From NCBI RefSeq assembly GCF_002854065.1, contig NZ_CP024147.1: 64,000 nucleotides of DNA. One strand, 5' to 3'. The position numbers and the translations under genes are program-made. Within the stretch, counting starts at the first letter, position 1. Each line of letters starts with the position of its first letter. The notes beneath the pieces were generated by a model, which searched no databases, was not told the origin of the DNA, and worked only from the letters and a program-made list of their open reading frames with translations. Shown here piece after piece: positions 32,399 through 52,192 of this stretch. This DNA is from Escherichia coli. GTDB taxonomy: Bacteria > Pseudomonadota > Gammaproteobacteria > Enterobacterales > Enterobacteriaceae.

Positions 32399-32718
32399 AT
32401 AGAGCTATACGCAGAGGGTAGCACAGTGTCGGATTGCATTGGACTTTGAAGGTACTCGTTAGAGGTTCAGGGTTCAGGCTCTTCAGCGCGGTTTCATCAA
32501 TACCTGGGTTAGTGAGCAGCGGTTGTGTGGCTGCATGGTGATAAATATGGCCCAATGAACACATTTTACATTGATGAATTGAATAAATATTGGTATGAAA
32601 AATAGTGTTTCTGTATTACTGATGGGTGACAGCACTTCACTGTTCAAGTTCAGGATGATGCTTTACCACTACCATCATCAGCAGTAATAAGAGGGGCATC
32701 GCAGCCTTCTTTTTTATT

Positions 32719-33054: not shown

Positions 33055-33503
33055 TAGAAGGAAGTCCACTTAATACGGTCTTGAGGTTTGGCAATCAGAT
33101 TGTATTTTTCCTGGGTACGAGTCGAAACCCTGTAAAGACTCATCGACAGTGAAACCCAACCAATCCACGGGACCCAACGAGCGATAATTGCAGCAAGCTT
33201 ATTAGATTTCTGCATCCTTACACCCACTGGTGTATGAACAGAAATACCAAAAGGCATGCGTGCATCTCTCATCAGTATACGCGCATACTTTGAGACAACA
33301 CTTGTTCCCAGGGTTGCCCCTTGCGGCTTCGCTCTTGTACCCAGCCAAGGTTGACCAGATAAGATTGCTGCACCTGATACCGAATCAATCCCCAATTCCT
33401 TACAGAATTCTTCAAGGAATATGACGTTGAGTAGTTCTATTTTGGACAGGTTCGGGTGTCCTCTATAGAAATATGTTCCATTGCGTTCTTCGGTAGTATC
33501 CAT
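33054..33503 (-). CDS. hypothetical 149-aa protein with C-proximal hydrophobic segment (family unassigned)
   Basis: ATG preceded by GGAG at a 9-nt spacing; hydrophobic stretch LAAIIARWVPWIGWVSLSMSLY; AGA/AGG Arg codons (atypical for E. coli core genes). Confidence 0.5.
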   Translation of the reverse strand: MDTTEERNGTYFYRGHPNLSKIELLNVIFLEEFCKELGIDSVSGAAILSGQPWLGTRAKPQGATLGTSVVSKYARILMRDARMPFGISVHTPVGVRMQKSNKLAAIIARWVPWIGWVSLSMSLYRVSTRTQEKYNLIAKPQDRIKWTSF

Positions 33504-33536
33504 TTTTCAACACTCCATTGTTATATAGTGTTTCTG

Positions 33537-33629
33537 TTACTTGAAGTTGATTTCTTCGGTTGCAGCAGATGCAGAACTAGAACCAGTAAAGGCAACGAGT
33601 GTCACAGCTATCAGTGCAAAGCGTTTCAT
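33537..33629 (-). CDS. putative 30-aa small ORF with signal-peptide-like N-terminus
   Basis: ATG preceded by GAGG at a 5-nt spacing; product MKRFALIAVTLVAFTGSSSASAATEEINFK; lies 33 nt upstream of the 149-aa ORF on the same strand. Confidence 0.3.
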   Translation of the reverse strand: MKRFALIAVTLVAFTGSSSASAATEEINFK

Positions 33630-34089
33630 GTGAACCTCAAAAAGGGTGGATGCCATAATTTACTCGTTGCTTGTCGCTTCAACCATGACTTTTGATAATT
33701 TTCCCAATAGTGCTCAAAGTGAGTTAGTCGCTGAATCGAGTAATGTCAAATTTTGACCAAATAGCACCCTGTTAGTTATCTCTGGTGGTTTTTTTATTGC
33801 TTAAAATCTGGTGTAACTAATTGATATTTAATACTTTATTTGAAGGTCGGGAAAATACTGTCTTTGGTCTAAAAGAAGTTTTTTGCATGGTATTTTCAGA
33901 GATTATGAATTGCCGCATTATAGCCTAATAACGCGCATCTTTCATGACGGCAAACAATAGGGTAGTATTGACAAGCCAATTACAAATCATTAACAAAAAA
34001 TTGCTCTAAAGCATCCGTATCGCAGGACGCAAACGCATATGCAACGTGGTGGCAGACGAGCAAACCAGTAGCGCTCGAAGGAGAGGTGA

Positions 34090-35340
34090 ATGGAAAGTAA
34101 AGTAGTTGTTCCGGCACAAGGCAAGAAGATCACCCTGCAAAACGGCAAACTCAACGTTCCTGAAAATCCGATTATCCCTTACATTGAAGGTGATGGAATC
34201 GGTGTAGATGTAACCCCAGCCATGCTGAAAGTGGTCGACGCTGCAGTCGAGAAAGCCTATAAAGGTGAGCGTAAAATCTCCTGGATGGAAATTTACACCG
34301 GTGAAAAATCCACACAGGTTTATGGTCAGGACGTCTGGTTGCCTGCTGAAACTCTTGATCTGATTCGTGAATATCGCGTTGCTATTAAAGGCCCGCTGAC
34401 CACTCCGGTTGGTGGCGGTATTCGTTCTCTCAACGTTGCCCTGCGCCAGGAACTGGATCTCTACATCTGCCTGCGTCCGGTACGTTACTATCAGGGCACT
34501 CCAAGCCCGGTTAAACACCCTGAACTGACCGATATGGTTATCTTCCGTGAAAACTCGGAAGACATTTATGCGGGTATCGAATGGAAAGCTGACTCTGCCG
34601 ACGCCGAGAAAGTGATTAAATTCCTGCGTGAAGAGATGGGCGTGAAGAAAATTCGCTTCCCGGAACATTGCGGTATCGGTATTAAGCCGTGTTCTGAAGA
34701 AGGCACCAAACGTCTGGTTCGTGCAGCGATCGAATACGCAATTGCTAACGATCGTGACTCTGTGACCCTGGTGCACAAAGGCAACATCATGAAGTTCACC
34801 GAAGGCGCGTTTAAAGACTGGGGCTACCAGCTGGCGCGTGAAGAATTTGGCGGTGAACTGATCGACGGCGGCCCGTGGCTGAAAGTTAAAAACCCGAATA
34901 CCGGCAAAGAGATCGTCATTAAAGACGTGATTGCTGATGCATTCCTGCAACAGATCCTGCTGCGTCCGGCTGAATATGATGTTATCGCCTGTATGAACCT
35001 GAACGGTGACTACATTTCTGACGCCCTGGCAGCGCAGGTTGGCGGTATCGGTATCGCCCCTGGTGCAAACATCGGTGACGAATGCGCCCTGTTTGAAGCC
35101 ACCCACGGTACTGCGCCGAAATATGCCGGTCAGGACAAAGTAAACCCAGGCTCTATTATACTCTCTGCTGAGATGATGTTACGCCACATGGGTTGGACCG
35201 AAGCCGCAGACCTGATTGTTAAAGGTATGGAAGGCGCAATCAATGCGAAGACCGTAACCTATGACTTCGAACGTTTGATGGAAGGCGCTAAACTGCTGAA
35301 ATGTTCAGAGTTTGGTGATGCGATCATCAAGAATATGTAA
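34090..35340 (+). CDS. icd: isocitrate dehydrogenase (NADP)
   Basis: 416-aa product [38 protein letters not shown]...; preceded by GGAGAGG RBS. Confidence 0.97.
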
Positions 35341-35364
35341 TCACTACATGTGTTAAATATTTAA

Positions 35365-35396
35365 ACGGGCGTATAACACGCCCGTTGTTTTATTTA
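35365..35396 (+). terminator. rho-independent terminator of icd
   Basis: acgggcgt-ataac-acgcccgt hairpin (8-bp stem) followed by a T-rich run. Confidence 0.7.
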
Positions 35397-35442
35397 TGTA
35401 GATATTATTAATAGCATATCGAGCATATTTATATAAAACCCA

Positions 35443-35766
35443 TTACTTGAGCCCATACGGGCATATTTTTATAATACAACTCTTATGCAAACATTTATTT
35501 GTTATTTCGCTTTCTCCTGGAGGACACTCTTGACTGCTTTTGAGTAAACTCCATAAATTCTTGTTGAATGGTGCAATGTTATAAATAGTAATAGGATATT
35601 CTTTATCCTTAAGGATAATACCAGGCTTAACAGGTGTAAATATACTTCCAGGAGGAAGAAATATAGTAGATTGATACCAGATGATCATTTTCATATCACC
35701 CCATATGGCTGAAAAAGATATGCCGCATGTAGGTTGAATTACCGTGTCAATTACTACCCACTTCAT
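35443..35766 (-). CDS. iraM: anti-adaptor protein IraM (RpoS stabiliser)
   Basis: 107-aa product [32 protein letters not shown]... matching my recollection of IraM/YcgW; AT-rich context. Confidence 0.82.
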
Positions 35767-36461
35767 TTGTTATGTCTTATCCCACGGTATTTAATATAGT
35801 TCATTTGGATGTTCATTTCTTTATTTTGCATATGAGTATATTACCCCTTCAAAAAATAAATTAATTAAAACGATTGCTTATATAAAACAAAACTTAAAGC
35901 AAGGAATCTCAATGGATGTTAAACAAAATGAGATTTAGTGAAAACAATAAATTATTCACTTCGTTTTAGATTTGTTTAGCTATAATGTTATACATTCAAA
36001 TGACTGAACATCCTGTAATTAAAACATAGCCTTTATGCTACTTTGTGCCAATTTGCTAAACATTATGGTTGCCTTTTTATATAACGATAATAATGAATAT
36101 AAGCATGACATGAGAATAAGGTTTCAATTTTTGAGTTATATAGGAAAGGTTTAACCTGTTCCTGGCTAAAATACATATAACTGGATGATGACTAAACCAA
36201 AACACATGTGCGTTAAGTATTGAAACGGGCGTATGGCACGCCCGTTGGTTTTATAAATATATTAACCGTTATAAAATAACGTATAGAAAGTCAAGTGATC
36301 ACATTTCAAATATCAATTTGATAGTATTGGCCTGGTGATTATTTATGGGTAGCAATAAAAGGACAGTATTTATCATCCATAGGGATAGTCTCTGTACTTT
36401 TATTCCCATTATGCTAATGCCTTACTGAATTATGAAGCATTTCTTAAGCATCCAACTTAAG

Positions 36462-36866
36462 CTAGATTAATGGTTTATTATTTTCTACATCTTCAATATA
36501 TAAAAGCGTATTATCAATGGCGTAGTAACTGCGTTTGTTATGATTAACATCAGTAACCCAACGGAAAACGCCCGCGTCTGCCAGTGTTGAACAGTATTCC
36601 CGAAATGTAGATTTTCCGCAAATATGAAGCAATGCGGCCTCTTTTATTTTAGCAGGGTTCTTGGTCGTACTAACTTTTAACAGGTTCCTGGTTCCTCTTA
36701 ATAACAAAACCGTGTCATCGTGAGTAATAATTCTGATGTTATCCGTAGCCAGATAATAAATGTAATGTGCAATACGGTGATGTTTTAATTCTGAATAAAA
36801 CCAGGAGAAGTTTTGCTCTTTTCTCACTTGCTCAAACATCTTTTGAAAAACAACGACCTGATCCAT
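36462..36866 (-). CDS. ycgX: uncharacterised protein YcgX
   Basis: 134-aa ORF at the conserved position between iraM and bluR. Confidence 0.75.
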   Translation of the reverse strand: MDQVVVFQKMFEQVRKEQNFSWFYSELKHHRIAHYIYYLATDNIRIITHDDTVLLLRGTRNLLKVSTTKNPAKIKEAALLHICGKSTFREYCSTLADAGVFRWVTDVNHNKRSYYAIDNTLLYIEDVENNKPLI

Positions 36867-37086
36867 CAGGATAATAACCTCTTGTTAGTTGTGAGACTGC
36901 GTAGTGTGCACGATCGGTTTTACCACTTCAATCTGGTCTGTCCTTTGGCTGTGATATGTACAAAGTGTGAAAGGGGGATTACCTGAATTCTCCCGGTGAG
37001 CATTTTGTAATGGACCAGCTCCGGTACAAACGCTGTTGTGGGTTCAGATTATAACATTCTGTCTAAGGGGCGGGATAAAGGTGAAA

Positions 37087-37818
37087 TTAGGGGGCATGAA
37101 AGATGACTTTATAACCTTGCTCACCCCAGTGTTGTAAAAGTTCATTTTGCCTTCTCGTTGGTGCCATGCCTGTCCAGACAATCAATGTTTGCGTCGGGAA
37201 CAGTTCCGGGCGCGGTGATTCAATGGGATCAGCAAGAACAGAAATATGCCATCCTGACAATGATAAACGCCATGCTTCCAGCCACAATCGAGCTCTCTCT
37301 TCAACATTCCACGCCATCAGAATGGCTTCTTTACCGGGCTTACGGCGCATTTCGAAAAGCGAGGCTGCTGCGTATTCAATTAGTGCGCCGTCAAACATAC
37401 TGCTCATAATGCGGGAGGTGTTGTGATCAAGCACGAGACGCTGGCGAACAGGAAGGTAAACATGATTAATCAATTGATCTACTGGGTACTCTCGACCCAG
37501 TGAAATAATTCTCGCGCGTAGTTTGGCAGGATTAGCCATACGAAGAATTGACATCATCTCTTCTTGCAGGCGGCTCCAGTCATCTTCCGTATCCTGGCTG
37601 GTGGTTTCCAGTAATGCTTTAACTTTGCCTACAGGGACGCCATTACTTATCCAACGCTTGATCTCTTCGATACGTTGTATGTCTTCTTCATCAAAGAGTC
37701 GGTGTCCGCCTTCACTGCGCTGTGGTTTTAACAAACCGTAGCGGCGTTGCCAGGCCCGGAGAGTGACAGGATTAATCCCGCAACGTTCAGCAACATCACC
37801 AATGCTGTAATAAGCCAC
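37087..37818 (-). CDS. bluR: MerR-family repressor BluR (YcgE)
   Basis: 243-aa product with N-terminal MerR HTH ([32 protein letters not shown]). Confidence 0.9.
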
Positions 37819-37868
37819 AATTCCTCCTTGCGGTCACAAATCTCCGTCGCCTGTACACGACCCAATAA

Positions 37869-37904
37869 TACTTTGTACAATATACGCTAAAATTGTACAA
37901 AGTA
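37869..37904. promoter_or_regulatory. inverted repeat (13-bp arms) in bluR upstream region, candidate operator
   Basis: tactttgtacaat - 10 bp - attgtacaaagta, perfect 13-bp inverted repeat 50-85 bp upstream of the bluR start. Confidence 0.35.
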
Positions 37905-38022
37905 TAAATAAGATTTCAGCTAAATTGGATGAAACATTATTTTTAATGTGGATTAAATTAAAACATAACGTATTCATTTTCACGATGATTTCCAGAAAAC
38001 TTGCAAAATAATGTGCTGAAAA

Positions 38023-39234
38023 TTATTTTTTCTCCGGCCACGCAACTGAAGGGATACCATTCAATTTAGCTTTAGCAAACAGATCCCCCTGAAACATCTC
38101 AATTCCTGCGGATTCAAGCCACATCCACTCTTCTGGTGTTGCCACGCCCATAGCACTGACTTGAATTTCAAGTGATGTACAGCATTTTATGATCGCCTGA
38201 ATAATTGCCTGCCGTGGTCCGCTTTTATGAACATTGGTAATCAATTCCTGACTGATTTTAATTCTGTCAGGCTGGAAGCGTGACAGGAGTAACAAACCAG
38301 CAAAACCTGCGCCAAAATGATCAATTGCTACACTGATACCGGCAGCCTTTAGCGATTTAACCGCTTCGGCAAACTCATCAAACCGAGATATGACTTCACT
38401 TTCAGTAAATTCAACGATGATTTGTTCAGGCACCAGACCATTGGCCTTTATTTCATCAAGTAAAAAAGAGACTGCGTCAGGCTCGTTAACCAGGGTCATA
38501 GGTAATAGATTGATAGATATCATTTTATCACCGAGCTCAAGTGCGTGTGCCATCGCGAATACAAGCGCCTTACTTTTGAGATCCGCTGTGTAGATTTCCC
38601 CGTCTTTACGCTGCCCAACCGCTATAGCTGACGGGCTGTCTTCATTTTTTTGCACAATGGCTTCAAAAGCGATTATCCGCCGCGATAAGGGATCAACAAT
38701 AGGATGAAAGGCAAAGTGGTCGTTTATATTTGGTGAAAGGGTACAGGAATCAAGTTCTTTATCAGATCTGTCAGCGATAAAAAGCCAGGAGTCTTCAGCA
38801 GGGATCTCGAAATAGGTTGATTGTTCGGTTGCAAGGACAAAAGTACGAAAAAATTGTAGCGCTCTGTCATCATAAGTTAGCTGAAATTTTGATGTGCCTT
38901 TGTCGAATACGGCCTGTAAAACGTCATCTCGCTCGTGCAGGCGTAAATCAAATAATTCCATTCCTGCTTTACCAAAACGGCGAGCAGGCGCGTAATCGCA
39001 CAACAGTTCAACAATATTATAGTGCCGAGGATCCTGGCATATAGCCCGATATATCATTTGAACCTGTTCTTCCGGACCTTCCAGAAGCTGGAAAAAATGA
39101 GAACCATTAAACAGTAAGATCCCTGTTACGTCAGACTGCATGTTCCTGCGATTTGCTATCGAAACCATTTCTTCGATTTTTTTGACAGGTTCGTCGTCAC
39201 GTATATGGCTACGATAAATAAGGGTGGTAAGCAT
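38023..39234 (-). CDS. bluF: blue-light sensor BluF (BLUF plus degenerate EAL domain; YcgF)
   Basis: 403-aa product from MLTTLIYRSHIRDD...; BLUF N-terminus and EAL-like C-terminus. Confidence 0.9.
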   Translation of the reverse strand: MLTTLIYRSHIRDDEPVKKIEEMVSIANRRNMQSDVTGILLFNGSHFFQLLEGPEEQVQMIYRAICQDPRHYNIVELLCDYAPARRFGKAGMELFDLRLHERDDVLQAVFDKGTSKFQLTYDDRALQFFRTFVLATEQSTYFEIPAEDSWLFIADRSDKELDSCTLSPNINDHFAFHPIVDPLSRRIIAFEAIVQKNEDSPSAIAVGQRKDGEIYTADLKSKALVFAMAHALELGDKMISINLLPMTLVNEPDAVSFLLDEIKANGLVPEQIIVEFTESEVISRFDEFAEAVKSLKAAGISVAIDHFGAGFAGLLLLSRFQPDRIKISQELITNVHKSGPRQAIIQAIIKCCTSLEIQVSAMGVATPEEWMWLESAGIEMFQGDLFAKAKLNGIPSVAWPEKK

Positions 39235-39547
39235 TAACTGTCCAGGGTAATGGGAGAGGCGAGAGTAAGACGGTAACAGACATATCTTCCGGTGTCTTTC
39301 TTTTAATACCAAAACATAACTGTTTCTTTACATTGATAAAAAATGGAAAAAGTTGAACACGAGTTGGCGAAAAATCTTGTATAGGTTGTCAGTTAAATGA
39401 TGCAATATGTTTTATCATAACGTATTGTTTTATATGCATTAGCACTAATTGCAAAAAATTAATTTATCATTCTGTACACATATTTCGTACAAGTTTGCTA
39501 TTGTTACCTCACTTAACATTGATTAACATTTTTAACAGAGGCGTAGC

Positions 39548-39784
39548 ATGCATCAAAATTCAGTGACTTTAGATTCTGCGGGAGCAATCACTCGTTACTT
39601 TGCAAAAGCTAACTTGCCTACTCAGCAGGAAACTCTCGGGGAAATTGTGACTGAGATTTTGAAAGATGGACGTAATCTGAGTCGAAAGTCGCTTTGTGCC
39701 AAACTTCTTTGCCGACTGGAACAAGCGACAGGGGAAGAGGAACAGAAACATTATAATGCACTAATTGGGTTGCTTTTTGAATAA
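39548..39784 (+). CDS. ycgZ: small protein YcgZ (connector of two-component signalling)
   Basis: 78-aa ORF with good RBS, divergent from bluF. Confidence 0.85.
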   Translation: MHQNSVTLDSAGAITRYFAKANLPTQQETLGEIVTEILKDGRNLSRKSLCAKLLCRLEQATGEEEQKHYNALIGLLFE

Positions 39785-39813
39785 TGCAACAGCCTGATTA
39801 TTTGGATTTGCCC

Positions 39814-40719
39814 CTATATTTCCAGACATCTGTTATCACTTAACCCATTACAAGCCCGCTGCCGCAGATATTCCCGTGGCGAGCGATAACCCAGCGCACT
39901 ATGCGGATGCCATTCGTTATAATGCTCGAACGCCTCTGCAAGGTTCTTTGCTGCCGTTAACCCGTCTGGTTTGGGCATGATACTGATGTAGTCACGCTTT
40001 ATCGTTTTCACGAAGCTCTCTGCTATTCCGTTACTCTCCGGACTCCGCACCGCCGTGTTCTTCGGTTCAAGTCCCAACATCCGGGCGAACTGGCGTGTTT
40101 CATTAGCCCGGTAGCATGAACCATTATCCGTCAGCCACTCCACTGGAGACGACGGAAGATCGTTGCCGAAGCGGCGTTCCACCGCTCCCAGCATGACGTC
40201 CTGTACTGTTTCACTGTTGAAGCCGCCGGTAGTGACCGCCCAGTGCAGTGCCTCACGATCACAGCAGTCCAGCGCGAACGTGACACGCAGTCTCTCTCCG
40301 TTATCACAGCAGAACTCGAACCCGTCAGAGCACCATCGCTGATTGCTTTCTTTCACGGCCACTCTGCCTGTATGTGCCCGTTTCGATGGCGGTACAGCAG
40401 GTTTTCGCTCAAGCAACAGCGCATTCTAGCGCATGATCCGGTAAACACGTTTGGCATTGATCGCAGGCATACCATCAAGTTCTGCCTGTCTGCGAAGCAG
40501 CGCCCATACCCGACGATAACCATACGTGGGCAGCTCTCCGATAACATGGTGTATACGGAGAAGCACATCCGTATCATCAGTGTGACGACTGCGGCGGCCA
40601 TCCATCCAGTCATCGGTTCGTCTGAGAATGACGTGCAACTGCGCACGCGACACCCGGAGACAACGGCTGACTAAGCTTACTCCCCATCCCCGGGCAATAA
40701 GGGCGCGTGCGCTATCCAC
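39814..40719 (-). pseudogene. insD: IS2 transposase OrfB (InsD) interrupted by in-frame TAG at codon 98
   Basis: Frame [12 protein letters not shown]...AKRVYRIMR / TAG (rc of plus 40426-40428) / [20 protein letters not shown]...; canonical IS2 has Gln at this position as I recall. Confidence 0.75.
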
Positions 40720-41042
40720 TTTTTTGCCCGTCCATATTCAACGGCTTCTTTGAGGAGTTCATTTTCCATCGTTTTCTTGCCGAGCAGGCGCTGGAGTTCT
40801 TTAATCTGCTTCATGGCGGCAGCAAGTTCAGAGGCAGGAACAACCTGTTCTCCGGCGGCGACAGCAGTAAGACTTCCTTCCTGGTATTGCTTACGCCAGA
40901 GAAATAACTGGCTGGCTGCTACACCATGTTGCCGGGCAACGAGGGAGACCGTCATCCCCGGTTCAAAGCTCTGCTGAACAATTGCGATCTTTTCCTGTGT
41001 GGTACGCCGTCTGCGTTTCTCCGGCCCTAAGACATCAATCAT
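40677..41042 (-). CDS. insC: IS2 transposase OrfA (InsC)
   Basis: 121-aa product [34 protein letters not shown]... Confidence 0.9.
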
Positions 41043-41162
41043 CTGTTCTCCAATGACTAGTCTAAAAACTAGTATTAAGACTATCACTTATTTAAGTGAT
41101 ATTGGTTGTCTGGAGATTCAGGGGGCCAGTCTATTATTTAACAGGTTAGCTATGAAGTCGTT

Positions 41163-41435
41163 ATGAAGACATCTGATAATGAAAGTATAAAATATGAAAT
41201 TACTGGCCAGGCGGTGCTCCAGATACTGCGCATGAAGATAAATTTTTCGGTGCAGACTCTTATTAAGCAATTACTCGTAATGAAATCGGCTGAGGAAAAT
41301 GCTTTCCGACGAGATTTAATTGACAGCATAATTCGTGATTTTAGCAACAGTGATACAGGAGGGCCAAACCGAAGAACAGCGATAGCTGACAATAAAAGTA
41401 TGTTCAATGGTAAGAAAATAAACAGAATACATTAA
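41163..41435 (+). CDS. ymgA: small protein YmgA (connector/biofilm-related)
   Basis: 90-aa ORF, first gene after the IS2. Confidence 0.82.
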   Translation: MKTSDNESIKYEITGQAVLQILRMKINFSVQTLIKQLLVMKSAEENAFRRDLIDSIIRDFSNSDTGGPNRRTAIADNKSMFNGKKINRIH

Positions 41436-41463
41436 AATTTCATAAGTAAGATGAGAGGTTACC

Positions 41464-41730
41464 ATGCTTGAAGATACTACAATTCATAATGCAATAACTG
41501 ATAAAGCGTTATCAAGTTACTTTCGCAGTTCGGGTAATTTGTTAGAAGAAGAGTCAGCAGTGTTAGGGCAGGCTGTGACTAATTTAATGCTTTCAGGCGA
41601 TAATGTTAATAATAAAAATATTATCTTAAGTCTGATACACTCCCTGGAAACAACAAGTGATATTCTCAAAGCTGACGTGATCAGAAAAACACTGGAAATC
41701 GTGTTGCGATACACAGCGGATGACATGTAA
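41464..41730 (+). CDS. ariR: AriR (YmgB), regulator of acid resistance/biofilm
   Basis: 88-aa ORF with GAGAGG RBS. Confidence 0.85.
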
Positions 41731-41842
41731 CTTTTAATTATTAAGTATAAGTTTATAGAAAACTCATTCATCTTATTTTTGTCTGTCGCTTTAGACTATA
41801 CACAGCATAATTTTATTGGGTTAATATTTCTACGAGGCTGAC

Positions 41843-42091
41843 ATGAATAATTCAATCCCAGAGAGATTTATTTTTCAATGTGCTTTGTTTAAAAATCTCG
41901 AGAGGGAGGTATTCATGACGCATGGGTATGTTGATAGTCATATTATTGATCAGGCTTTACGCTTGCGTTTAAAAGATGAAACCAGTGTGATTCTTTCTGA
42001 TCTCTATCTGCAAATCTTGCAGTACATTGAAATGCATAAGACTACACTAACGGATATCATTATTAATGACAGGGAATCCGTGCTCTCTTAG
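41843..42091 (+). CDS. ymgC: small protein YmgC
   Basis: 82-aa ORF, TAG stop. Confidence 0.78.
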   Translation: MNNSIPERFIFQCALFKNLEREVFMTHGYVDSHIIDQALRLRLKDETSVILSDLYLQILQYIEMHKTTLTDIIINDRESVLS

Positions 42092-42426
42092 AACTTGAGT
42101 AAGGTTATAGAATAAACATCAGCTGTATCATCATGCTGGTGCAAAGTGAGCATTTCAGGCGTTATGCTTTCTTAATATATCCGCAATATCAGGGGGCAAA
42201 CAGGAATGGAGAGCGCTCGTTTTCCATTCTTGACGCCTGATATCCCACCTAATTTGTTTAATTCTGCCTACATTGTGCTCAATAATTAATAGGTTAGATG
42301 AAGATGGAGAAAATTTTATCTTCGGCGTGGATATTTCTTATGCTCTCTACCATGCTCTCTGTAGACGCCAGCGCGAGCGAATGAACGTCATTTTCATGTA
42401 TTAAACCCTTTGTTCGGGACAAGCGA

Positions 42427-43950
42427 ATGCGCAATACACTCATACCCATCCTCGTTGCGATATGCTTGTTTATAACCGGTGTCGCTATTTTGAACATCCA
42501 GCTCTGGTATTCCGCAAAAGCAGAGTACCTGGCGGGAGCAAGATATGCCGCCAACAATATCAATCATATACTTGAAGAAGCGTCACAGGCGACTCAAACA
42601 GCGGTTAACATTGCCGGGAAGGAATGCGACCTCGAGGAGCAATATCAGCTTGGCACTGAAGCAGCTCTGAAACCTCACCTGCGCACAATCATCATTCTCA
42701 AACAGGGTACGGTCTGGTGTACATCCTTACCGGGGAATCGGGTCCTGCTGTCTCGTATTCCTGTTTTCCCGGACAGTAATTTACTGTTGGCTCCGGCAAT
42801 CGACACCGTTAATCGATTACCTATCCTGCTCTATCAGAGCCAATTTGCAGATACGCGCATTTTGGTTACGATAAGTGATCAGCATATTCGCGGGGCGCTT
42901 AATGTACCCTTGAAAGGGGTAAGGTATGTATTACGCGTGGCGGATGACATTATTGGACCTACGGGTGATGTGATAACGCTTAATGGACATTATCCCTATA
43001 CCGAGAAGGTTCACTCCACAAAATATCATTTCACTATTATCTTTAACTCGCCGCCACTCTTTAGCTTCTACAGACTTATCGATAAAGGCTTTGGGATTTT
43101 GATCTTTATTCTGTTAATCGCCTGCGCCGCTGCCTTCCTGCTAGATAGGTATTTCAATAAAAGCGCAACGCCTGAAGAGATCCTGCGGCGGGCTATAAAT
43201 AATGGGGAGATCGTCCCTTTTTACCAACCAGTGGTGAATGGTCGGGAAGGGACATTGCGGGGAGTTGAGGTGTTAGCCCGCTGGAAACAACCTCACGGTG
43301 GATATATTTCACCCGCGGCATTTATTCCACTTGCTGAAAAATCCGGATTAATCGTTCCGCTTACGCAAAGCCTGATGAATCAGGTTGCCAGACAGATGAA
43401 CGCTATCGCGAGTAAATTGCCGGAAGGTTTTCATATTGGAATTAATTTTAGCGCCTCGCATATTATTTCGCCGACGTTTGTCGACGAGTGCTTAAATTAC
43501 CGTGACAGTTTTACCCGCCGCGATTTAAACCTCGTTCTGGAAGTTACCGAGCGTGAGCCATTAAATGTTGATGAAAGTCTGGTTCAGCGGTTGAACATTC
43601 TGCATGAAAATGGTTTTGTCATCGCGCTGGATGATTTCGGTACTGGCTACTCAGGGCTTTCTTTTCTGCATGACCTGCATATTGATTATATCAAAATTGA
43701 TCACAGTTTCGTTGGCCGCGTAAACGCAGACCCAGAATCAACTCGGATTCTGGATTGTGTATTGGATCTGGCGCGTAAACTTTCGATCAGTATCGTCGCT
43801 GAAGGTGTCGAAACCAAAGAACAACTTGACTATCTGAACCAAAATAATATCACATTTCAGCAGGGTTATTATTTCTATAAACCTGTTACATACATCGACC
43901 TGGTCAAAATTATCCTTTCTAAACCGAAGGTGAAGGTTGTGGTTGAGTGA
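42427..43950 (+). CDS. pdeG: c-di-GMP phosphodiesterase-family protein PdeG (YcgG), CSS-motif plus EAL domain
   Basis: 507-aa product with N-terminal TM, periplasmic domain, second TM and C-terminal EAL domain. Confidence 0.87.
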   Translation: MRNTLIPILVAICLFITGVAILNIQLWYSAKAEYLAGARYAANNINHILEEASQATQTAVNIAGKECDLEEQYQLGTEAALKPHLRTIIILKQGTVWCTSLPGNRVLLSRIPVFPDSNLLLAPAIDTVNRLPILLYQSQFADTRILVTISDQHIRGALNVPLKGVRYVLRVADDIIGPTGDVITLNGHYPYTEKVHSTKYHFTIIFNSPPLFSFYRLIDKGFGILIFILLIACAAAFLLDRYFNKSATPEEILRRAINNGEIVPFYQPVVNGREGTLRGVEVLARWKQPHGGYISPAAFIPLAEKSGLIVPLTQSLMNQVARQMNAIASKLPEGFHIGINFSASHIISPTFVDECLNYRDSFTRRDLNLVLEVTEREPLNVDESLVQRLNILHENGFVIALDDFGTGYSGLSFLHDLHIDYIKIDHSFVGRVNADPESTRILDCVLDLARKLSISIVAEGVETKEQLDYLNQNNITFQQGYYFYKPVTYIDLVKIILSKPKVKVVVE

Positions 43951-44081
43951 AAATCGATCACTAAGGCCATGATGCGGTGTAATTATAGACAGCTAATTAG
44001 CTCGTTGCCTCTTGTTACTATTGTTCATTATTTTGTTTGCTATAATTGTTTGAAAGTTTTGACAGGATTGCCATTAGTAGC

Positions 44082-44300
44082 ATGAACAATAGTAATAATC
44101 TGGATTATTTCACTCTCTATATCATCTTTTCCATTGCATTTATGCTGATCACTCTCCTGGTCATCCTTATTGCAAAACCCAGTACCGGGCTGGGAGAAGT
44201 GCTTGTGACGATAAATTTGCTTAATGCCCTTGTTTGGCTGGCGATCAATCTGGTTAATCGATTAAGGGAAAGACTCGTCAGCCACAGGGATCAGCAATAA
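44082..44300 (+). CDS. ymgF: small inner membrane protein YmgF
   Basis: 72-aa product MNNSNNLDYFTLYIIFSIAFMLITLLVILIA... with two hydrophobic helices. Confidence 0.75.
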   Translation: MNNSNNLDYFTLYIIFSIAFMLITLLVILIAKPSTGLGEVLVTINLLNALVWLAINLVNRLRERLVSHRDQQ

Positions 44301-44699
44301 TCTTTCAGTTTCTCACTGTCAGCATGCGGCTGAATGGGGTGCTGACAGTGAACGCCTGGATCATTGAAGGAAAGGAATTATTGCGCAAATAGTTGTCAAC
44401 CCTGGTGTTATCACAGTTGTTTTTATATATCATTGAAATAATTTCTATGGCAACTATCAATGATTGTGATGTCGAAGAGTTATTTGTTAAACAAAATCGT
44501 CACCTCAAAGTGATCAATGTCATGAAAATAAGGTGAAAAATAATAATGCCGACTTATTTATCATTTATATATTGTTGCTGTTTATCTATTTAAATTTCTT
44601 GTGCTTTTGTTTTTGTCTTTACCCTCCGTTTTGGTAATCTGAACTCATAGGTTATTTGACCAGGAATGTTTGTTAATCCAATGAATGGATGGTTAATCT

Positions 44700-47363
44700 A
44701 TGAAACTGAAAAAACTCCCCGGGTTTAGTTTAGGACTTATTGCTCTGGCGGTGGGTAATGCATATGCAACACAATTGTTGGATGATTATAGTATAATTTC
44801 CTATATAACCGATGAAGAATCGCCGATTCAAATCAAAGATAATACTTTGAAAAGTAATGAAGAATATCTAACCACTGAAGACGAAAGCCATGCTGTGAAA
44901 GTGGATGACGGTGTAACTGGATATATAAATAATGCCAGTGTGATGACTAGTGGTGATGGATCTTATGGTATTTCTGTTGATAGTCAAAACAAAGTATTAT
45001 ATATAAGCGATAGCGATATTAAGACCTCTGGAAGCGTATCTAACAAAGAAAATAACCAAGATGTTAATGGAGGGATAACAGCCAGCGCAGTAGTCAGTGA
45101 ATTTGGTGGCACCATCGTTATGAATGGTGATAATTTAGTCGAGACGGGGGGGGCATATTCAGCGGGACTTTTAAGTCAGGTTAATGATTCTGGAAATGTG
45201 GAAAATAACACTCGTCTTGAAACCACAGATAAAACGATCATTGTTACCTCTGGGGAAAATGCAGTAGGTGTTCTTGCATGTTCAAGACCTGGAGAGTCTC
45301 GAACATGTGTCGATGCTGTAGATGATGAAGTTAGTGATTCTAACAGTTACGAAGTTATTAGCCGTGCTGATTTAAAAATGAATGGTGGTTCCATAACAAC
45401 TAATGGCATTAATAGCTATGGTGCTTATGCTAATGGGAAAAAAGCATATATTAATTTAGATTATGTGGCACTTGAAACTGTGGCTGATGGAAGTTATGCA
45501 GTTGCTATTCGACAAGGTAACATTGATATAAAAAATAGTTCTATTACAACAACAGGCACTAAAGCCCCCATTGCAAAAATATACAATGGTGGAGAGTTAT
45601 TTTTTTCCAATGTCACCGCGGTATCAGTAAAAGATAAAGGAATATCAATTGATGCATCAAATATCGATTCTCATGCCAAAATAGCACTATCAAGTGTTGA
45701 ACTTTCAAGTGCTTTGGATAGTATTGATGTTAACAAAACTACAACGAATTTAAGCATCCTTAATCGAAGTATTATCACGCCTGGTAATAATATTCTGGTT
45801 AATAATACTGGGGGTGACTTAAACATAATTTCGTCCAACTCTACTCTAAATGGAGCGACTAAACTCGTTAGCGGCACAACCACGCTGAAGCTTTCAGAAA
45901 ACACAATCTGGAATATGAAAGATGACTCCGTTGTTACCCATCTGACTAATTCAGACAGTATTATCAATCTTTCGTATGATGATGGTCAAACATTTACCCA
46001 GGGAAAAACGTTAACCGTAAAAGGTAATTATGTCGGTAATAATGGTCAGCTTAATATCCGCACTGTATTAGGTGATGATAAATCAGCTACGGATAGACTT
46101 ATTGTGGAGGGTAATACTTCGGGTTCAACTACCGTCTATGTGAAAAATGCTGGAGGAAGCGGCGCGGCCACGCTAAATGGGATCGAACTCATAACTGTGA
46201 ATGGCGATGAATCTCCAGCAGATGCCTTCAGACAAGGTGATGCAAGGATTGCAGCTGGAGCTTTCGAATATCAACTAAAACAACAAGGCAAAAACTGGTA
46301 TTTGACAAGTTATCAGTCAGTGAATGAGGAGGATAACAGCTCAGAGGGAAATTCAGAATCAACAGAAACGCCCACCCCCGTCCTGCGCCCCGAAGCTGGA
46401 AGTTACGTCGCCAACCTGGCAGCCGCTAACACTCTTTTTGTTATGCGTCTGAATGACCGTGCAGGTGAAACGCGCTACATCGATCCTGTAACTGAACAGG
46501 AGCGTTCAAGCCGACTTTGGCTACGTCAAATTGGCGGGCATAATGCCTGGCGTGACAGCAACGGACAGTTGAGAACGACCTCGCATCGCTACGTCTCGCA
46601 GTTAGGGGCCGATCTGTTAACCGGTGGTTTTACCGACAGTGACAGTTGGCGTTTGGGAGTGATGGCTGGTTATGCCCGCGACTACAACTCAACTCATTCC
46701 AGCGTGTCGGATTATCGTTCGAAAGGGAGTGTCAGAGGCTATAGCGCAGGGCTGTATGCCACCTGGTTTGCCGATGACATCAGTAAAAAAGGCGCATACA
46801 TTGACGCCTGGGCGCAATATAGCTGGTTTAAAAACTCGGTGAAAGGGGATGAATTAGCCTATGAATCCTATAGCGCGAAAGGCGCAACCGTCTCGCTGGA
46901 AGCGGGTTACGGCTTTGCCCTGAATAAATCCTTTGGTCTGGAAGCGGCGAAATATACGTGGATCTTCCAGCCACAGGCACAGGCTATCTGGATGGGCGTC
47001 GATCATAATGCGCACACCGAAGCCAATGGCTCACGTATTGAGAATGACGCAAATAACAACATCCAGACCCGACTTGGTTTCCGCACTTTTATTCGTACTC
47101 AGGAGAAAAACAGCGGTCCGCACGGTGACGACTTTGAACCTTTTGTTGAAATGAACTGGATCCATAACAGTAAAGATTTTGCTGTCTCAATGAACGGCGT
47201 GAAAGTCGAACAAGACGGGGCGCGTAATTTGGGGGAAATTAAACTTGGCGTAAATGGCAATCTGAATCCGGCGGCCAGCGTCTGGGGTAATGTGGGCGTG
47301 CAGCTGGGTGATAATGGCTACAATGACACCGCAGTGATGGTGGGCCTGAAATATAAGTTCTGA
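44700..47363 (+). CDS. ycgH: autotransporter (type Va) adhesin-like protein YcgH, full-length ORF
   Basis: 887-aa ORF: signal peptide MKLKKLPGFSLGLIALAVGNAYA, Ser/Thr/Gly/Asn-rich passenger, C-terminal beta-barrel ending ...VGLKYKF. Confidence 0.85.
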   Translation: MKLKKLPGFSLGLIALAVGNAYATQLLDDYSIISYITDEESPIQIKDNTLKSNEEYLTTEDESHAVKVDDGVTGYINNASVMTSGDGSYGISVDSQNKVLYISDSDIKTSGSVSNKENNQDVNGGITASAVVSEFGGTIVMNGDNLVETGGAYSAGLLSQVNDSGNVENNTRLETTDKTIIVTSGENAVGVLACSRPGESRTCVDAVDDEVSDSNSYEVISRADLKMNGGSITTNGINSYGAYANGKKAYINLDYVALETVADGSYAVAIRQGNIDIKNSSITTTGTKAPIAKIYNGGELFFSNVTAVSVKDKGISIDASNIDSHAKIALSSVELSSALDSIDVNKTTTNLSILNRSIITPGNNILVNNTGGDLNIISSNSTLNGATKLVSGTTTLKLSENTIWNMKDDSVVTHLTNSDSIINLSYDDGQTFTQGKTLTVKGNYVGNNGQLNIRTVLGDDKSATDRLIVEGNTSGSTTVYVKNAGGSGAATLNGIELITVNGDESPADAFRQGDARIAAGAFEYQLKQQGKNWYLTSYQSVNEEDNSSEGNSESTETPTPVLRPEAGSYVANLAAANTLFVMRLNDRAGETRYIDPVTEQERSSRLWLRQIGGHNAWRDSNGQLRTTSHRYVSQLGADLLTGGFTDSDSWRLGVMAGYARDYNSTHSSVSDYRSKGSVRGYSAGLYATWFADDISKKGAYIDAWAQYSWFKNSVKGDELAYESYSAKGATVSLEAGYGFALNKSFGLEAAKYTWIFQPQAQAIWMGVDHNAHTEANGSRIENDANNNIQTRLGFRTFIRTQEKNSGPHGDDFEPFVEMNWIHNSKDFAVSMNGVKVEQDGARNLGEIKLGVNGNLNPAASVWGNVGVQLGDNGYNDTAVMVGLKYKF

Positions 47364-47380
47364 TCCCCGTTAGCTAAAAT

Positions 47381-47405
47381 ACCGCGTCGAATTCATCGAC
47401 GCGGT
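47381..47405. terminator. bidirectional hairpin terminator between ycgH and ymgD
   Basis: accgcgtcga-attca-tcgacgcggt perfect 10-bp stem. Confidence 0.6.
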
Positions 47406-47418
47406 AACATATGAAATA

Positions 47419-47748
47419 TTATTTTTTGCCGATAGCACGCATGGTGTCATCAATTGCCGTGATCAACAGCATTTGCGGGTCTTTAGCGCAAACCTGATTC
47501 AGTTTTTCTACCACTTTGGCGCTCAGTTCCGGAGATTGCTCAATTTTTAAATCACGGCTGGCAACGCTGGCATTACCCATTACCGCAACAATTTCTGCAA
47601 CCTGTGCGCTGTCAGTTTTTGCCATTTCGTTGGCTTCTGCGCAAGTAATATAGGTTTCTGACGGCAAACCGTTTTTAATATTGTAGTCCTGCGCCCAGGT
47701 CATTGGTGCGAAAACAAACAGGCCCGCCAGTAAAGCAAATTTTTTCAT
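47419..47748 (-). CDS. ymgD: periplasmic protein YmgD
   Basis: about 109-aa secreted ORF (signal peptide ...PMTWA). Confidence 0.8.
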   Translation of the reverse strand: MKKFALLAGLFVFAPMTWAQDYNIKNGLPSETYITCAEANEMAKTDSAQVAEIVAVMGNASVASRDLKIEQSPELSAKVVEKLNQVCAKDPQMLLITAIDDTMRAIGKK

Positions 47749-47757
47749 CATCATTCC

Positions 47758-48102
47758 TTATTTCATTTTACCCAGAATTGCACCACCCGTACCGCCAATC
47801 ACGGCACCTTTAATCGCCCCTTCGAGGCCATTGCCGGTCAGAACGCCAGTGACAGCACCAACGGCGGCACCCACTTTTGCACCTTTACGTGCATTTTTAC
47901 CGTCGCGGCCTTTTTCTGTTACTGCACCAACACCAGCGCCAACAGCTGCACCTTTCAGTACGCCATTAACACCATTGCCAGTAAGTAATCCAACGCCTGC
48001 GCCTAGCAATGCACCTTTCGTGGTGCGGTTCATATCCGCCATCGCTGGCGTGGAGCAGAACAATGCTGAGATAAGCCCGAAGGCAAGTATTTTTTTCTTC
48101 AA
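47758..48102 (-). CDS. ymgG: glycine-zipper protein YmgG
   Basis: 114-aa Gly/Ala/Val-rich secreted ORF immediately downstream of ymgD. Confidence 0.8.
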
Positions 48103-48578
48103 CTTAGATGTCCGGTATTAAGTAAGTTGCACACACAATAATTTCGTCTTCAATTAAGATCTGCTTAACTAAAGAACGCTCGCTATTATTCAGATAATTC
48201 AAAATGAGCGTGGCTGTGATGATAGGAATTATGTTTTTTACGTGAATGAGAATAATCTTAAATGAGGAATAACTCATTGATTGACAATATTTTTATTCAA
48301 GAAGTGTCATTGACTGTTAACGCAATGTTGTAATGGTAAGATAATCTGATTTATCAATATTATTGTGTGATTTTTATGTGAGCAGAAGATATTCATCAGC
48401 AACGATTACATTAGTCATTTTATTTTGCCGACGGCCTCATTGTCGAAAGATAAGCGTACGACAGTATTATCTGAAAAGAGTGATTTTTTATCCAACCACA
48501 CTTCAGCGCACTGCGTTTAAAAAATGCCTCTTTCTTATGCGGGATATCATCATTTCATCATGATGTCTTTGGTGAGCG

Positions 48579-49022
48579 GTGAACACAATACACCTGCGCT
48601 GTCTCTTCAGGATGAATCCCCTGGTCTGGTGCCTGCGGGCTGATGTTGCAGCCGAGCTAAGGTCACTTAGACGCTACTATCATTTATCCAATGGCATGGA
48701 ATCGAAATCAGTCGATACCCGCAGTATATATCGTGAACTGGGTGCAACGCTGAGTTACAACATGCGTCTGGGGAACTGTATGGAAGTTGAGCCGTGGCTG
48801 AAGGCGGCTGTGCGCAAAGAATTTGTCGATGATAACCGGGTGAAAGTGAATAATGACGGTAATTTCGTCAATGATTTGTCGGGCAGACGTGGAATATACC
48901 AGGCAGGTATTAAAGCCTCATTCAGCAGTACGTTAAGCGGGCATCTCGGGGTGGGGTATAGCAACGGTGCCGATGTGGAATCCCCGTGGAACGCGGTGGC
49001 TGGTGTGAACTGGTCATTCTGA
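48579..49022 (+). pseudogene. ycgI: autotransporter beta-domain C-terminal remnant (ycgI-like)
   Basis: 147-codon frame lacking ATG and signal sequence, ending in typical autotransporter barrel terminus ...AVAGVNWSF. Confidence 0.6.
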
Positions 49023-49342
49023 CCATCAACGATTAAACTGCACTTCGGCACAGTTTTCGTTTACAGGATGTTAAAAGAGAAAATTCTGGGGTAAAAAAAG
49101 CCCGCCAGTTACGGCGGGAAACCTCATCCTATGGGAGAACAATGAATAATGAATAATGAAATTGCGGGGTTATCATCTCCCAGTATATCCATACCAACAA
49201 TAAGGTTATTTACTCAACCAGGCATAAACATTTTTTTTTGTGCGTGGGAACATCCTTAAGGTGTAAAGGGGGAGGTGGAAATAGCAATGAGGAGTATCAG
49301 CAAGAATACTCGCCGCTTTACCACAACGTGGATGAGAGGGAT

Positions 49343-49376
49343 GAAAAACTCAAGGCAGAGATAACTCTGCCTTGAA
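49343..49376 (-). terminator. rho-independent terminator downstream of minE
   Basis: tcaaggcagag-ataa-ctctgccttga 11-bp stem with adjacent T-run on minus strand. Confidence 0.6.
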
Positions 49377-49400
49377 GATAAATGCGCTTTTACAGCGGGA

Positions 49401-49667
49401 TTATTTCAGCTCTTCTGCTTCCGGTAAGGTCACGTTCAGCTCAAGAATAGAAATATCGCCATCTTTTTGCTCAAGCTGTACGGTTACCATCTCAGGATCA
49501 ATTTGTACGTATTTACAAATGACCTCAAGAATATCTTTACGCAACTGCGGCAGATAATGCGGTTCTGCATCGCTGCGACGGCGTTCAGCAACAATAATCT
49601 GCAGCCGTTCTTTTGCAATGTTGGCTGTGTTTTTCTTCCGCGAGAGAAAGAAATCGAGTAATGCCAT
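49401..49667 (-). CDS. minE: cell division topological specificity factor MinE
   Basis: 88-aa product [31 protein letters not shown]... Confidence 0.95.
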
Positions 49668-49670
49668 AAC

Positions 49671-50483
49671 TTATCCTCCGAACAAGCGTTTGAGGAAGCC
49701 TTTCTTCTCTTCTTCAATGAAGCGGAAAGGACGTTCTTCTCCCAACAGACGTTCTACGGTATCTGCGTAGGCTTTACCCGCATCGGCGTTAATGTCGAGA
49801 ATGACCGGTTCACCCTGGTTAGAGGCGCGCAATACTGATTGATCCTCTGGGATCACGCCGACGAGTTTGATGCGCAGGATCTCCAGCACATCTTCCATGC
49901 TCAGCATGTCACCTCTGCTTACGCGGCCTGGGTTATAGCGCGTTAACAGCAGGTGCTCTTTAATAGGCTCTTCGCCATTTTCTGCGCGGCGTGATTTTGA
50001 CGCCAGAATGCCTAAAATACGGTCAGAGTCGCGTACTGAGGAGACTTCCGGGTTGGTGGTAATAATGGCTTCGTCTGCAAAATAGAGTGCCATTAACGCA
50101 CCGGTTTCAATCCCTGCCGGGGAGTCACAAACGATAAATTCAAAATCCATCGCTTTCAGATCATCAAGAACTTTAGCGACCCCTTCACGGGTGAGGGCAT
50201 CTTTATCGCGTGTTTGCGATGCCGGCAGAATATAGAGATTTTCAGTACGCTTATCTTTAATTAACGCCTGATTTAGCGTTGCATCGCCCTGAATGACGTT
50301 GACGAAATCGTAAACGACCCGGCGTTCGCAACCCATAATCAGGTCGAGATTACGCAGGCCGATATCAAAATCTATCACGACAGTTTTCTTTCCCTTCTGG
50401 GCCAAACCAGTGGCGATGGCCGCGCTGGAGGTTGTCTTACCAACACCCCCTTTGCCCGAAGTAACAACAATAATGCGTGCCAT
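49671..50483 (-). CDS. minD: septum site-determining ATPase MinD
   Basis: 270-aa product MARIIVVTSGKGGVGKTTSSA... (deviant Walker A). Confidence 0.97.
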   Translation of the reverse strand: MARIIVVTSGKGGVGKTTSSAAIATGLAQKGKKTVVIDFDIGLRNLDLIMGCERRVVYDFVNVIQGDATLNQALIKDKRTENLYILPASQTRDKDALTREGVAKVLDDLKAMDFEFIVCDSPAGIETGALMALYFADEAIITTNPEVSSVRDSDRILGILASKSRRAENGEEPIKEHLLLTRYNPGRVSRGDMLSMEDVLEILRIKLVGVIPEDQSVLRASNQGEPVILDINADAGKAYADTVERLLGEERPFRFIEEEKKGFLKRLFGG

Positions 50484-50506
50484 AGAAATTCCTTGTTAAA
50501 AAGGGA

Positions 50507-51202
50507 TCAATTTAACGGTTGAACGGTCAAAGCGTTTTCGACTAACTGCAGTCGCGCCGCTTTGCCATAAAATTCTGCTGGGATTTGATCACTCAGCCAG
50601 TATTCACCTGCGATGGACACCAATTCCGCCATCAGGTTCGTACAAAATATTTGCGTTTCCCGGTCACCACTTGCCCCTGCAAGCGCACGACCGCGCATCA
50701 TGCCATAGACATGAATGTTCCCATCGGCAATCAATTCGGCCCCAGCGCTAACGTGGCTTGTAACAATCAGATCACATTGTGGAGCATAAATACGCTGACC
50801 GGAACGCACCGGGGTATCTATTAAACGCGTTTTTGTGACTGGCGTTGTATTTTGCGCTGGAACCTGCGGTGCGGGAGCTGGACGTGGCGCTTTTTCCTTT
50901 CCTTCCGTCAGGATAGGCAGCCCCATTTTTTCAATTTCGGCTTTAAGTTGCGCATCTTTGCAGCCACTTACGCCAATAACCCGCAAACCGGTTGCCGAAA
51001 CCGCCTTATGCATCGCTGACCAGTTTACCGGGTCTTCCAGTGCACTGACGTTGAGTACAACGGGGGCATGTTTTAAAAATGCGGGGGCCTGAGCGATTTT
51101 GTCTTCCAGCGCCTGATGGATAACCTTAGGTTCTGCCTCATGCAGATGAACCACAGATAAAGTGAAGCTACTGCCTTTAAGCTCGATTGGCGTGTTTGAC
51201 AT
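50507..51202 (-). CDS. minC: septum site-determining protein MinC
   Basis: 231-aa product [20 protein letters not shown]... Confidence 0.93.
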
Positions 51203-52090: not shown

Positions 52091-52192
52091 TGTCTTGTTT
52101 ACATTATGTTCTATTCGTCATTAACCTCTTGAGCGACAGAGAGGAGTGGGGCGTTAACGTTTATGACGGGGAGAGTCCCCGTCGGTTGACAT

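Follow-up and report, generated by a model that had tools for sequence, protein, structure and literature searches.

Between icd and the min operon, Escherichia coli K-12 carries a blue-light pathway in which BluF antagonizes the repressor BluR at the ycgZ promoter (PMC3509220), where MarA and sigma-S also act (PMC6900184). Tschowri et al. (2012) described a minimal conserved unit of this cassette and prophage relatives of the neighbouring gene ycgX, noted that ymgC, pdeG and ymgF are absent from other enteric bacteria, and already proposed phage-associated transfer of the region (PMC3509220). Genomic SELEX (systematic evolution of ligands by exponential enrichment) on K-12 DNA placed H-NS sites in the iraM-ycgX, bluR-bluF, bluF-ycgZ, ymgC-pdeG (ycgG) and ymgF-ycgH spacers, and the same five spacers hold RpoD promoters (Shimada et al., 2014, PMC3946193). 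For iraM, induction by PhoP/PhoQ has been reported (PMC10948607), and the gene has been put on the e14 prophage (PMC4045071). Here we describe the corresponding AT-rich block, positions 35341-48580 of a 64-kb window (the whole stretch of DNA analyzed) of an E. coli chromosome, running from ycfL/lpoB to dadA.

To the left of the block lies icd (34090-35340), to its right the min operon (49401-51202). With a probability of roughly 80%, we consider it to be the known icd-minE neighbourhood, an AT-rich mosaic at a fixed position that arose through more than one acquisition beside the phage-integration site in icd. Altogether 68 K-12 genes map to the window in unchanged order, nearly all with 95-100% nucleotide identity (ycfZ, 89%, and ymgL, 91%, fall below). 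The gene names given by the initial annotation were all confirmed at 95-100% nucleotide identity to K-12, and Pfam confirmed its protein classes (BLUF+EAL, CSS+EAL, MerR/MlrA, autotransporter). Its claim that the block is more AT-rich than the flanking core also held. Without the insertion sequence IS2, the guanine-plus-cytosine (GC) content of 35341-48580 is 40.8%, as compared to 51.4% for 1-32365 and 48.4% for 49401-64000 (500-bp windows, Mann-Whitney p=2e-9 against the left and p=8e-5 against the right flank), an excess of AT such as is expected of horizontally acquired DNA silenced by H-NS. Codon statistics likewise distinguish the block from its flanks: the median gene GC content at third codon positions is 0.38 versus 0.55 (p=4e-8), and block genes are more distant in codon usage from the flank gene pool (p=2e-4). 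Median gene length is 299 bp in the block and 819 bp in the flanks. The left GC edge is sharp and coincides with the icd stop codon. The right edge is fuzzy, since low GC runs on through the ycgI remnant to ~49400, and the right flank contains further AT-rich genes (ycgJ, pliG, hlyE). A separate AT-rich islet (32366-34089, 42% GC) lies 5' of icd.

The initial annotation treated the region as one accessory block. Counts over 5,426 complete E. coli genomes did not agree with this. DNA matching 35341-39802 was present in 5,411 genomes (99.7%), with at least 80% covered in 4,842, and DNA matching 41139-48580 in 5,385, with a coverage of 70-78% in many; in the lower-coverage genomes that we inspected, ycgH was replaced by an autotransporter with another annotation or by a number of hypothetical proteins. 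The ycgZ-ymgC segment was found in 4,970 genomes (92%), and the 817 bp with iraM and ymgK in 3,945 (73%), so that ~27% are without this unit. Because the module frequencies differ in this way, and the position is the same in nearly all genomes, the block constitutes a species-wide mosaic at a fixed position, whose modules have separate histories, and not a single or strain-specific island. Pfam and profile searches of the block proteins revealed no integrase or recombinase, no attachment (att) site or terminal repeats bound the block as a whole, and its parts are not jointly present or absent. Patchy distribution or varied context was instead found for iraM-ymgK, for the bluR-bluF cassette and for ycgX.

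The leftmost module consists of the following elements.

35349-35391, no strand assigned: terminator hairpin of icd, first copy (copy 1) of a direct repeat of 43 nt; bidirectional, serving icd and iraM
35443-35766, minus strand: iraM, 107 amino acids, RssB anti-adaptor, GC 34.6%, 95% nucleotide identity to K-12
36019-36063, minus strand: ymgK, 14 amino acids, 100% identity to K-12 b4738
36209-36251, no strand assigned: copy 2 of the repeat, 43 nt, 86% identical to copy 1; right edge of the iraM-ymgK unit

The two repeat copies sit 860 bp apart and bracket iraM and ymgK. In the B2 strains ABU 83972 and AVS0223, these 860 bp are absent, and one hairpin joins the icd 3' end to the right flank of copy 2. 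The single B2 repeat resembles copy 1 over its full length, and copy 2 has 4-5 private differences. The divergence between the copies (14%) is far above that of the flanks (~3%), which suggests that copy 2 may have arrived together with the inserted DNA. Upstream of copy 2, no further homology to the icd 3' end was found past ~50 nt.

A phage connection is indicated by the match of IraM to phrog_4407 (E=1e-50) and by homologs, 65% identical, in 46 phage records, mostly of Stx2-converting phages. In the one record inspected, the iraM homolog immediately adjoins stx2AB. A wider homology of the chromosomal unit to the Stx2 phage locus was considered and rejected, as the coding sequence alone matches (71%).

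Unlike in K-12, icd does not contain the e14 prophage in this strain, and the icd stop codon is followed by the terminator and then by iraM. The K-12 RefSeq record places the end of e14 at 1211412, with icdC and iraM following downstream. Since K-12 e14 ends before icdC and iraM, and the e14-free strain studied here keeps iraM, the gene is not part of e14, and its published placement there (PMC4045071) looks wrong. The iraM-ymgK pair is a separate 860-bp repeat-bounded insertion or deletion, independent of e14. We also note that phoPQ (25767-27898), whose product PhoP induces iraM, lies only ~8 kb from iraM.

Further to the right, ycgX has relatives in several places.

36462-36866, minus strand: ycgX (DUF1398), Pfam PF07166, phrog_413, prophage-family gene
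7001-7405 of comparison loci L095 and L096: YcgX homologs
7001-7405 of comparison loci L092 to L094: YcgX homologs

A YcgX homolog with 70% identity is located between the lysis genes and the terminase (Nu1) of E. albertii lambdoid prophages. Another, 77% identical, is found beside yedE/yedF-like genes (Sulf_transp, TusA) near fli in another Escherichia lineage. By these contexts, ycgX looks like a wandering phage cargo gene. The homologs were rejected as a guide to the icd-ycgX junction in outgroups, being paralogs in prophages or at other loci rather than orthologs.

The third module is the light-sensing cassette itself.

37087-37818, minus strand: bluR, MerR/MlrA-like repressor (K-12 identity and Pfam)
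38023-39234, minus strand: bluF, BLUF-EAL blue-light anti-repressor (K-12 identity and Pfam)
39235-39547, no strand assigned: divergent bluF/ycgZ promoter spacer, 32% GC; BluR/MarA-controlled promoter and H-NS site (PMC3946193; PMC3509220; PMC6900184)
39548-39784, plus strand: ycgZ (K-12 identity and Pfam)
41163-41435, plus strand: ymgA, distal ycgZ-ymgABC operon
41464-41730, plus strand: ariR, distal ycgZ-ymgABC operon
41843-42091, plus strand: ymgC, distal ycgZ-ymgABC operon

According to Pfam, a BLUF-EAL gene adjoins a MerR/MlrA-like gene and is divergent from ycgZ/ymgA/ariR-like small genes. The order bluR-bluF/ycgZ-(ymgA)-ariR(-ymgC) is kept in ~45 loci of other genera, including Citrobacter, Klebsiella, Enterobacter, Kosakonia, Atlantibacter and Pectobacterium. 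None of these loci has icd or min genes up to 10 kb from the cassette (icd does lie near two solitary bluF homologs of Erwinia); in Citrobacter youngae, for example, the cassette lies between ychF and gdh/dhaKLM. Clustering by shared flanks sorted the loci of 38 further Enterobacterales species into 17 contexts, a number that blastn may have inflated between distant genera; the window matches no context among these. Searched up to 10 kb from the cassette, the loci of other genera showed no homologs of pdeG, ycgH or ymgD/G, with the exception of one weak paralogous EAL match. Cassette GC is lower than flank GC in almost every host.

The rest of the block, up to the min operon, contains genes identified as follows.

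42427-43950, plus strand: pdeG, CSS-motif and EAL phosphodiesterase (K-12 identity and Pfam)
44082-44300, plus strand: ymgF (K-12 identity)
44700-47363, plus strand: ycgH, autotransporter, intact 887-amino-acid open reading frame; pseudogene in K-12
47419-47754, minus strand: ymgD (K-12 identity and Pfam)
47758-48102, minus strand: ymgG (K-12 identity and Pfam)
48579-49022, plus strand: ycgI pseudogene, retaining just the C-terminal part of an autotransporter beta-barrel (positions 152-254 of the PF03797 profile); also a pseudogene in K-12

Beside ycgI, ~230 nt past the minE terminator, we noticed a terminator-like hairpin on the minus strand (49101-49118, CCCGCCGTAACTGGCGGG followed by a T-run), which may terminate either ycgI on the opposite strand or a 3' transcript of minE.

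Composition, gene content, module distribution, terminator duplication and the anatomy of IS2 were observed directly. The history proposed for the block is one of separate acquisitions, in four modules. The first would be the 860-bp iraM-ymgK unit, related to phage cargo and placed between two copies of the icd terminator, with the unit inserted rather than deleted where it is absent. The second would be ymgL-ycgX, with ycgX from a gene family of lambdoid prophages. The third would be the self-contained bluR-bluF/ycgZ-ymgA-ariR(-ymgC) cassette, moving as a unit between enterobacterial genomes. The fourth would comprise pdeG, ymgF, ycgH, ymgD-ymgG-ymgI, ymgJ and the ycgI remnant, for which no homolog appears beside the cassette in other genera.

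Several points weigh against acquisition in this form. The block as a whole is not bounded by an integrase, a tRNA or an att site, so that, iraM and the cassette aside, transfer of its modules is argued from composition and from their absence beside the cassette elsewhere. The block is near-universal in E. coli, and any acquisition must therefore be old. A scan of contigs for BluF, with peptide patterns exact for E. coli, revealed no locus of a close Escherichia or Shigella; a single locus had an Escherichia label, that of the 67%-identical 'Escherichia sp. ESNIH1'. Cassette GC partly tracks host GC (0.43-0.55), and AT-richness could result in part from low expression and functional constraint. 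For the iraM unit, deletion is a possible alternative to insertion. The possible overcount of cassette contexts and the source of the H-NS evidence, which is in vitro SELEX on K-12 DNA and not on DNA of this strain, belong here as well.

The initial annotation had further described the block as horizontally acquired and silenced by H-NS. Foreign origin and H-NS binding are supported by the composition, the codon bias, the phage homologs, the 17 contexts and the SELEX data, but "silenced" is too simple, since expression is conditional under BluR/BluF, MarA, sigma-S and PhoP. Regulation of IraM by H-NS is reportedly the subject of work by Battesti et al. (2012). According to the literature, the AT-rich spacers are H-NS-bound promoter regions from which expression is conditional rather than off, and BluF relieves BluR repression of ycgZ-ymgABC in blue light.

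In the strain studied here, the target operon of this light switch is interrupted by an insertion sequence that the initial annotation had missed. It and its counterparts in other strains are located as follows.

39803-41133, minus strand: IS2 (IS3 family), complete, 1,331 bp, 53% GC
8893-10223 of comparison locus L002: IS2/IS3-family insertion of another strain
2706-4036 of comparison locus L089: IS2/IS3-family insertion of another strain
3214-4544 of comparison locus L090: IS2/IS3-family insertion of another strain
2835-4165 of comparison locus L091: IS2/IS3-family insertion of another strain

The element occupies the 42-bp gap between ycgZ and ymgA, parting ycgZ from ymgA-ariR-ymgC, and is flanked by the target duplication TTATT (39798-39802 and 41134-41138). 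It has the terminal inverted repeats of IS2 and the orfA/orfB layout, with the transposase genes on the minus strand. Length, 5-bp duplication and near-identity to known copies identify it as IS2: it is 99.9% identical, with 1-2 mismatches, to four IS2 copies of other genomes, annotated in RefSeq as 'IS3-like element IS2 family transposase, programmed frameshift'. The only base unique to the window copy, 40428 (G>A), changes CAG to TAG (Gln to amber) in orfB. The transposase reading frame thus contains an in-frame stop, and this copy is probably unable to make full-length transposase.

No complete RefSeq E. coli genome carries IS2 at exactly the same site. Independent IS2/IS3-family insertions, each with its own 5-bp duplication, are present in other strains in ymgA (two sites), in the ariR-ymgC gap and at the 5' end of pdeG. 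With the window copy included, all five of five have the same orientation, with the transposase antisense to the operon. The cluster between ycgZ and pdeG may represent a hotspot or a selected orientation. The closest genome, CUWW06, contains three IS1 copies within the block, and ycgZ-ymgC is split or truncated in 98 of the 4,970 genomes carrying it; the lolCD control was intact in 5,425 of 5,426 genomes, but consists of essential genes and is therefore not a fair control for the frequency of IS insertion. The recurrent hits would fit the published capture of transposons by H-NS-bound AT-rich DNA, in which H-NS is described as a transposon-capture protein (PMC11335895).

AT-richness and H-NS binding would make the operon an IS target, and IS2 would uncouple ymgA-ariR-ymgC from the ycgZ promoter that BluR controls. 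The light switch BluR/BluF has thus probably lost its hold on ymgA-ariR-ymgC in this strain, which, if true, could matter for the biofilm and Rcs phenotypes of the isolate. We put forward, as a speculation that is less likely than not, a proposal of two linked parts: an iraM-ymgK insertion at the icd terminator with its own hairpin, and an orientation-biased IS2 capture hotspot from ycgZ to pdeG. Its first part would have the 860-bp iraM-ymgK unit derived from a phage cargo gene, insulated by terminators, independent of e14 and bringing in its own diverged 43-nt hairpin; if this is true, the icd terminator is a recombination target in addition to the icd coding end. Its second part would have IS2 break, time and again in natural isolates, the link of ymgA and ariR, which act in Rcs and biofilm control, to the sensing of blue light.

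The initial annotation pointed to unusually long non-coding spacers and regarded them as good places to search for unannotated small open reading frames or small RNAs, of which it called none with confidence. Most of this DNA turned out to be occupied.

36299-36409, minus strand: ymgL, 36 amino acids, 91% nucleotide identity to K-12 b4739, Pfam PF23691 (E=7e-24)
48104-48277, minus strand: ymgI, 57 amino acids, 100% identity to K-12 b4593
48378-48563, plus strand: ymgJ, 61 amino acids, 98% identity to K-12 b4594
44301-44699, no strand assigned: spacer of 399 bp on the 5' side of ycgH, 34% GC

The interval 44301-44699 (ymgF-ycgH) is truly empty of genes, as claimed, and holds a published H-NS site and RpoD promoter (PMC3946193). 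The other two intervals named as non-coding are not: 35767-36461 carries ymgK and ymgL, and 48103-48578 is nearly filled by ymgI and ymgJ. All four genes are annotated in K-12 RefSeq. With the small genes and IS2 counted, the non-coding share is 19.6% in the block, 7.6% in the left and 16.2% in the right flank; the block value rises to 33.6% if they are ignored. The largest true spacers of the block measure 399, 335 and 313 bp. They are not unusually long, since the flanks contain spacers of 400, 519 and 586 bp.

That the true spacers (44301-44699, 42092-42426, 39235-39547, 35767-36018 and 36064-36298) owe their length to unannotated small RNAs or small proteins is unlikely. Precedent exists, as the two small proteins in the iraM-ycgX gap, YmgK and YmgL, were detected only in 2018, by epitope tagging (PMC6001520). 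Promoter-like sites are in slight excess (42 versus 33.7, standard deviation 5.2, in shuffled sequence). In a folding z-score scan of all spacers, the strongest signals came from the terminators of minE and icd, from the 3' end of bluF and from a hairpin of the ymgC-pdeG spacer, whose z-score is -3.55 for the spacer. The hairpin region, 42150-42245, folds strongly into a 14-bp stem at 42201-42232 without a U-tract, has G-U pairs where K-12 has G-C, and overlaps the published -35 element of the pdeG promoter.

Against hidden genes of this kind, an Rfam 15 covariance scan of 33000-51000 (E<=1) brought no family to its gathering score, and the sole match was a chance-level snoRNA (30.6 bits, gathering score 43, E=0.46). 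The terminator scan of the spacers revealed no orphan terminator save the duplicated icd hairpin. K-12 RefSeq annotates no non-coding RNA in the block, although it lists bhsB and asphoP nearby. Small open reading frames were sought in 44301-44699 and 42092-42426. The frames of the candidates in 44301-44699 are not conserved across strains, between which they show frame-shifting indels and clustered non-synonymous changes. One candidate, of 47 amino acids, matches a PGAP 'hypothetical protein' of B2 strains, but was rejected as a gene: a 1-bp indel shifts its start between strains, and its differences from K-12 are clustered and non-synonymous. We conclude that the block spacers contain no Rfam family and no convincing new small open reading frame; what the initial annotation had suggested seeking there is mostly accounted for by the annotated ymgK, ymgL, ymgI and ymgJ.

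Still less probable is an origin as native DNA, made AT-rich by regulatory genes that are short, expressed at a low level and little constrained in codon choice, and by AT-rich promoter and curvature regions kept for control by H-NS, BluR and sigma-S. The fixed and nearly universal position in E. coli would suit such an origin, and so would the short genes (median 299 versus 819 bp) and a cassette GC that stays below the flanks in nearly every host while partly tracking host GC. However, iraM and ycgX have phage homologs, iraM is variably present among strains and has repeat-bounded edges, the cassette occupies 17 unrelated contexts, and BluF is missing from Salmonella and Yersinia (PMC3509220).

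A single genomic island, acquired in one event and later silenced by H-NS, would explain the unbroken low GC from 35341 to ~49400, the sharp left edge at the icd phage-attachment site and the phage-family genes at the left end, but is very improbable and was already disfavoured by the unequal module frequencies (73%, 92%, >99%), by other genera having just the five- or six-gene cassette without pdeG, ycgH or ymgD/G nearby, and by the lack of an integrase and of terminal repeats around anything more than the iraM unit.

Outside the block, a few other peculiarities of this strain were noticed. A 1.5-kb AT-rich islet (32366-33867, 42% GC) in the 5' end of rluE is absent from K-12. It is edged by a 15-bp duplication of rluE sequence, supplies a new rluE N-terminus, and contains open reading frames for a DUF1493 protein (32719-33069) and for 149 amino acids (33054-33503), an STM2901-family protein in the CUWW06 annotation. 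In cobB (16975-17815), a 1-bp insertion at nt 820 makes the protein 6 residues shorter, and in ymfA (18715-19176), an amber codon at position 30 makes the gene a pseudogene.

The region, its genes, their regulation, the likely phage-associated origin and the H-NS sites are already in the literature or in RefSeq, and there is little new biology in them. The additions made here are modest, namely an iraM unit with repeats at its bounds and the recurrence of IS2 in the ycgZ-pdeG operon stretch. Three corrections follow: most of the "empty" DNA consists of annotated small-protein genes and IS2, the block is a species-wide mosaic and not a strain-specific island, and iraM is a separate repeat-bounded unit outside e14, contrary to PMC4045071.

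Compared to known systems, the block resembles H-NS-bound xenogeneic DNA in its GC content ~10 points under that of the flanks, its atypical codons, its phage-related cargo, its repeated capture of IS elements and the published sites in five spacers (in K-12). It differs in not being strain-specific, in having no mobility genes of its own, and in consisting of regulators whose expression is conditional, not of cargo that stays silent permanently. The IS2 copy is typical of its family except for the CAG to TAG change in orfB. As in e14-type integration at icd, the chromosomal iraM adjoins the icd att region and is edged by a duplicated icd 3' flank. However, e14 duplicates a 165-bp coding end, whereas the iraM unit duplicates the 43-nt terminator after the stop codon. 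The iraM homologs next to stx2AB in Stx2 phages recall phage cargo ('moron') genes; unlike such cargo and unlike e14, the iraM unit retains no integrase or other phage gene. With the K-12 region icdC-iraM-ycgX-bluRF-ycgZ-ymgABC-pdeG-ymgF-ycgH-ymgDG-ymgIJ-ycgI (b1160-b1172, b4519-b4521, b4593/4, b4738/9), the window agrees in its genes and in their order and orientation (91-100% nucleotide identity), and K-12 differs by e14 in icd, the absence of IS2 between ycgZ and ymgA, a ycgH pseudogene and the absence of the 1.5-kb rluE islet. Finally, the gene layout, the domains and the conservation as a unit are those of the BluR/BluF-YcgZ-YmgA-AriR pathway (Tschowri et al., 2009, 2012; PMC3509220), with the difference that the target operon is broken here by IS2 after ycgZ.

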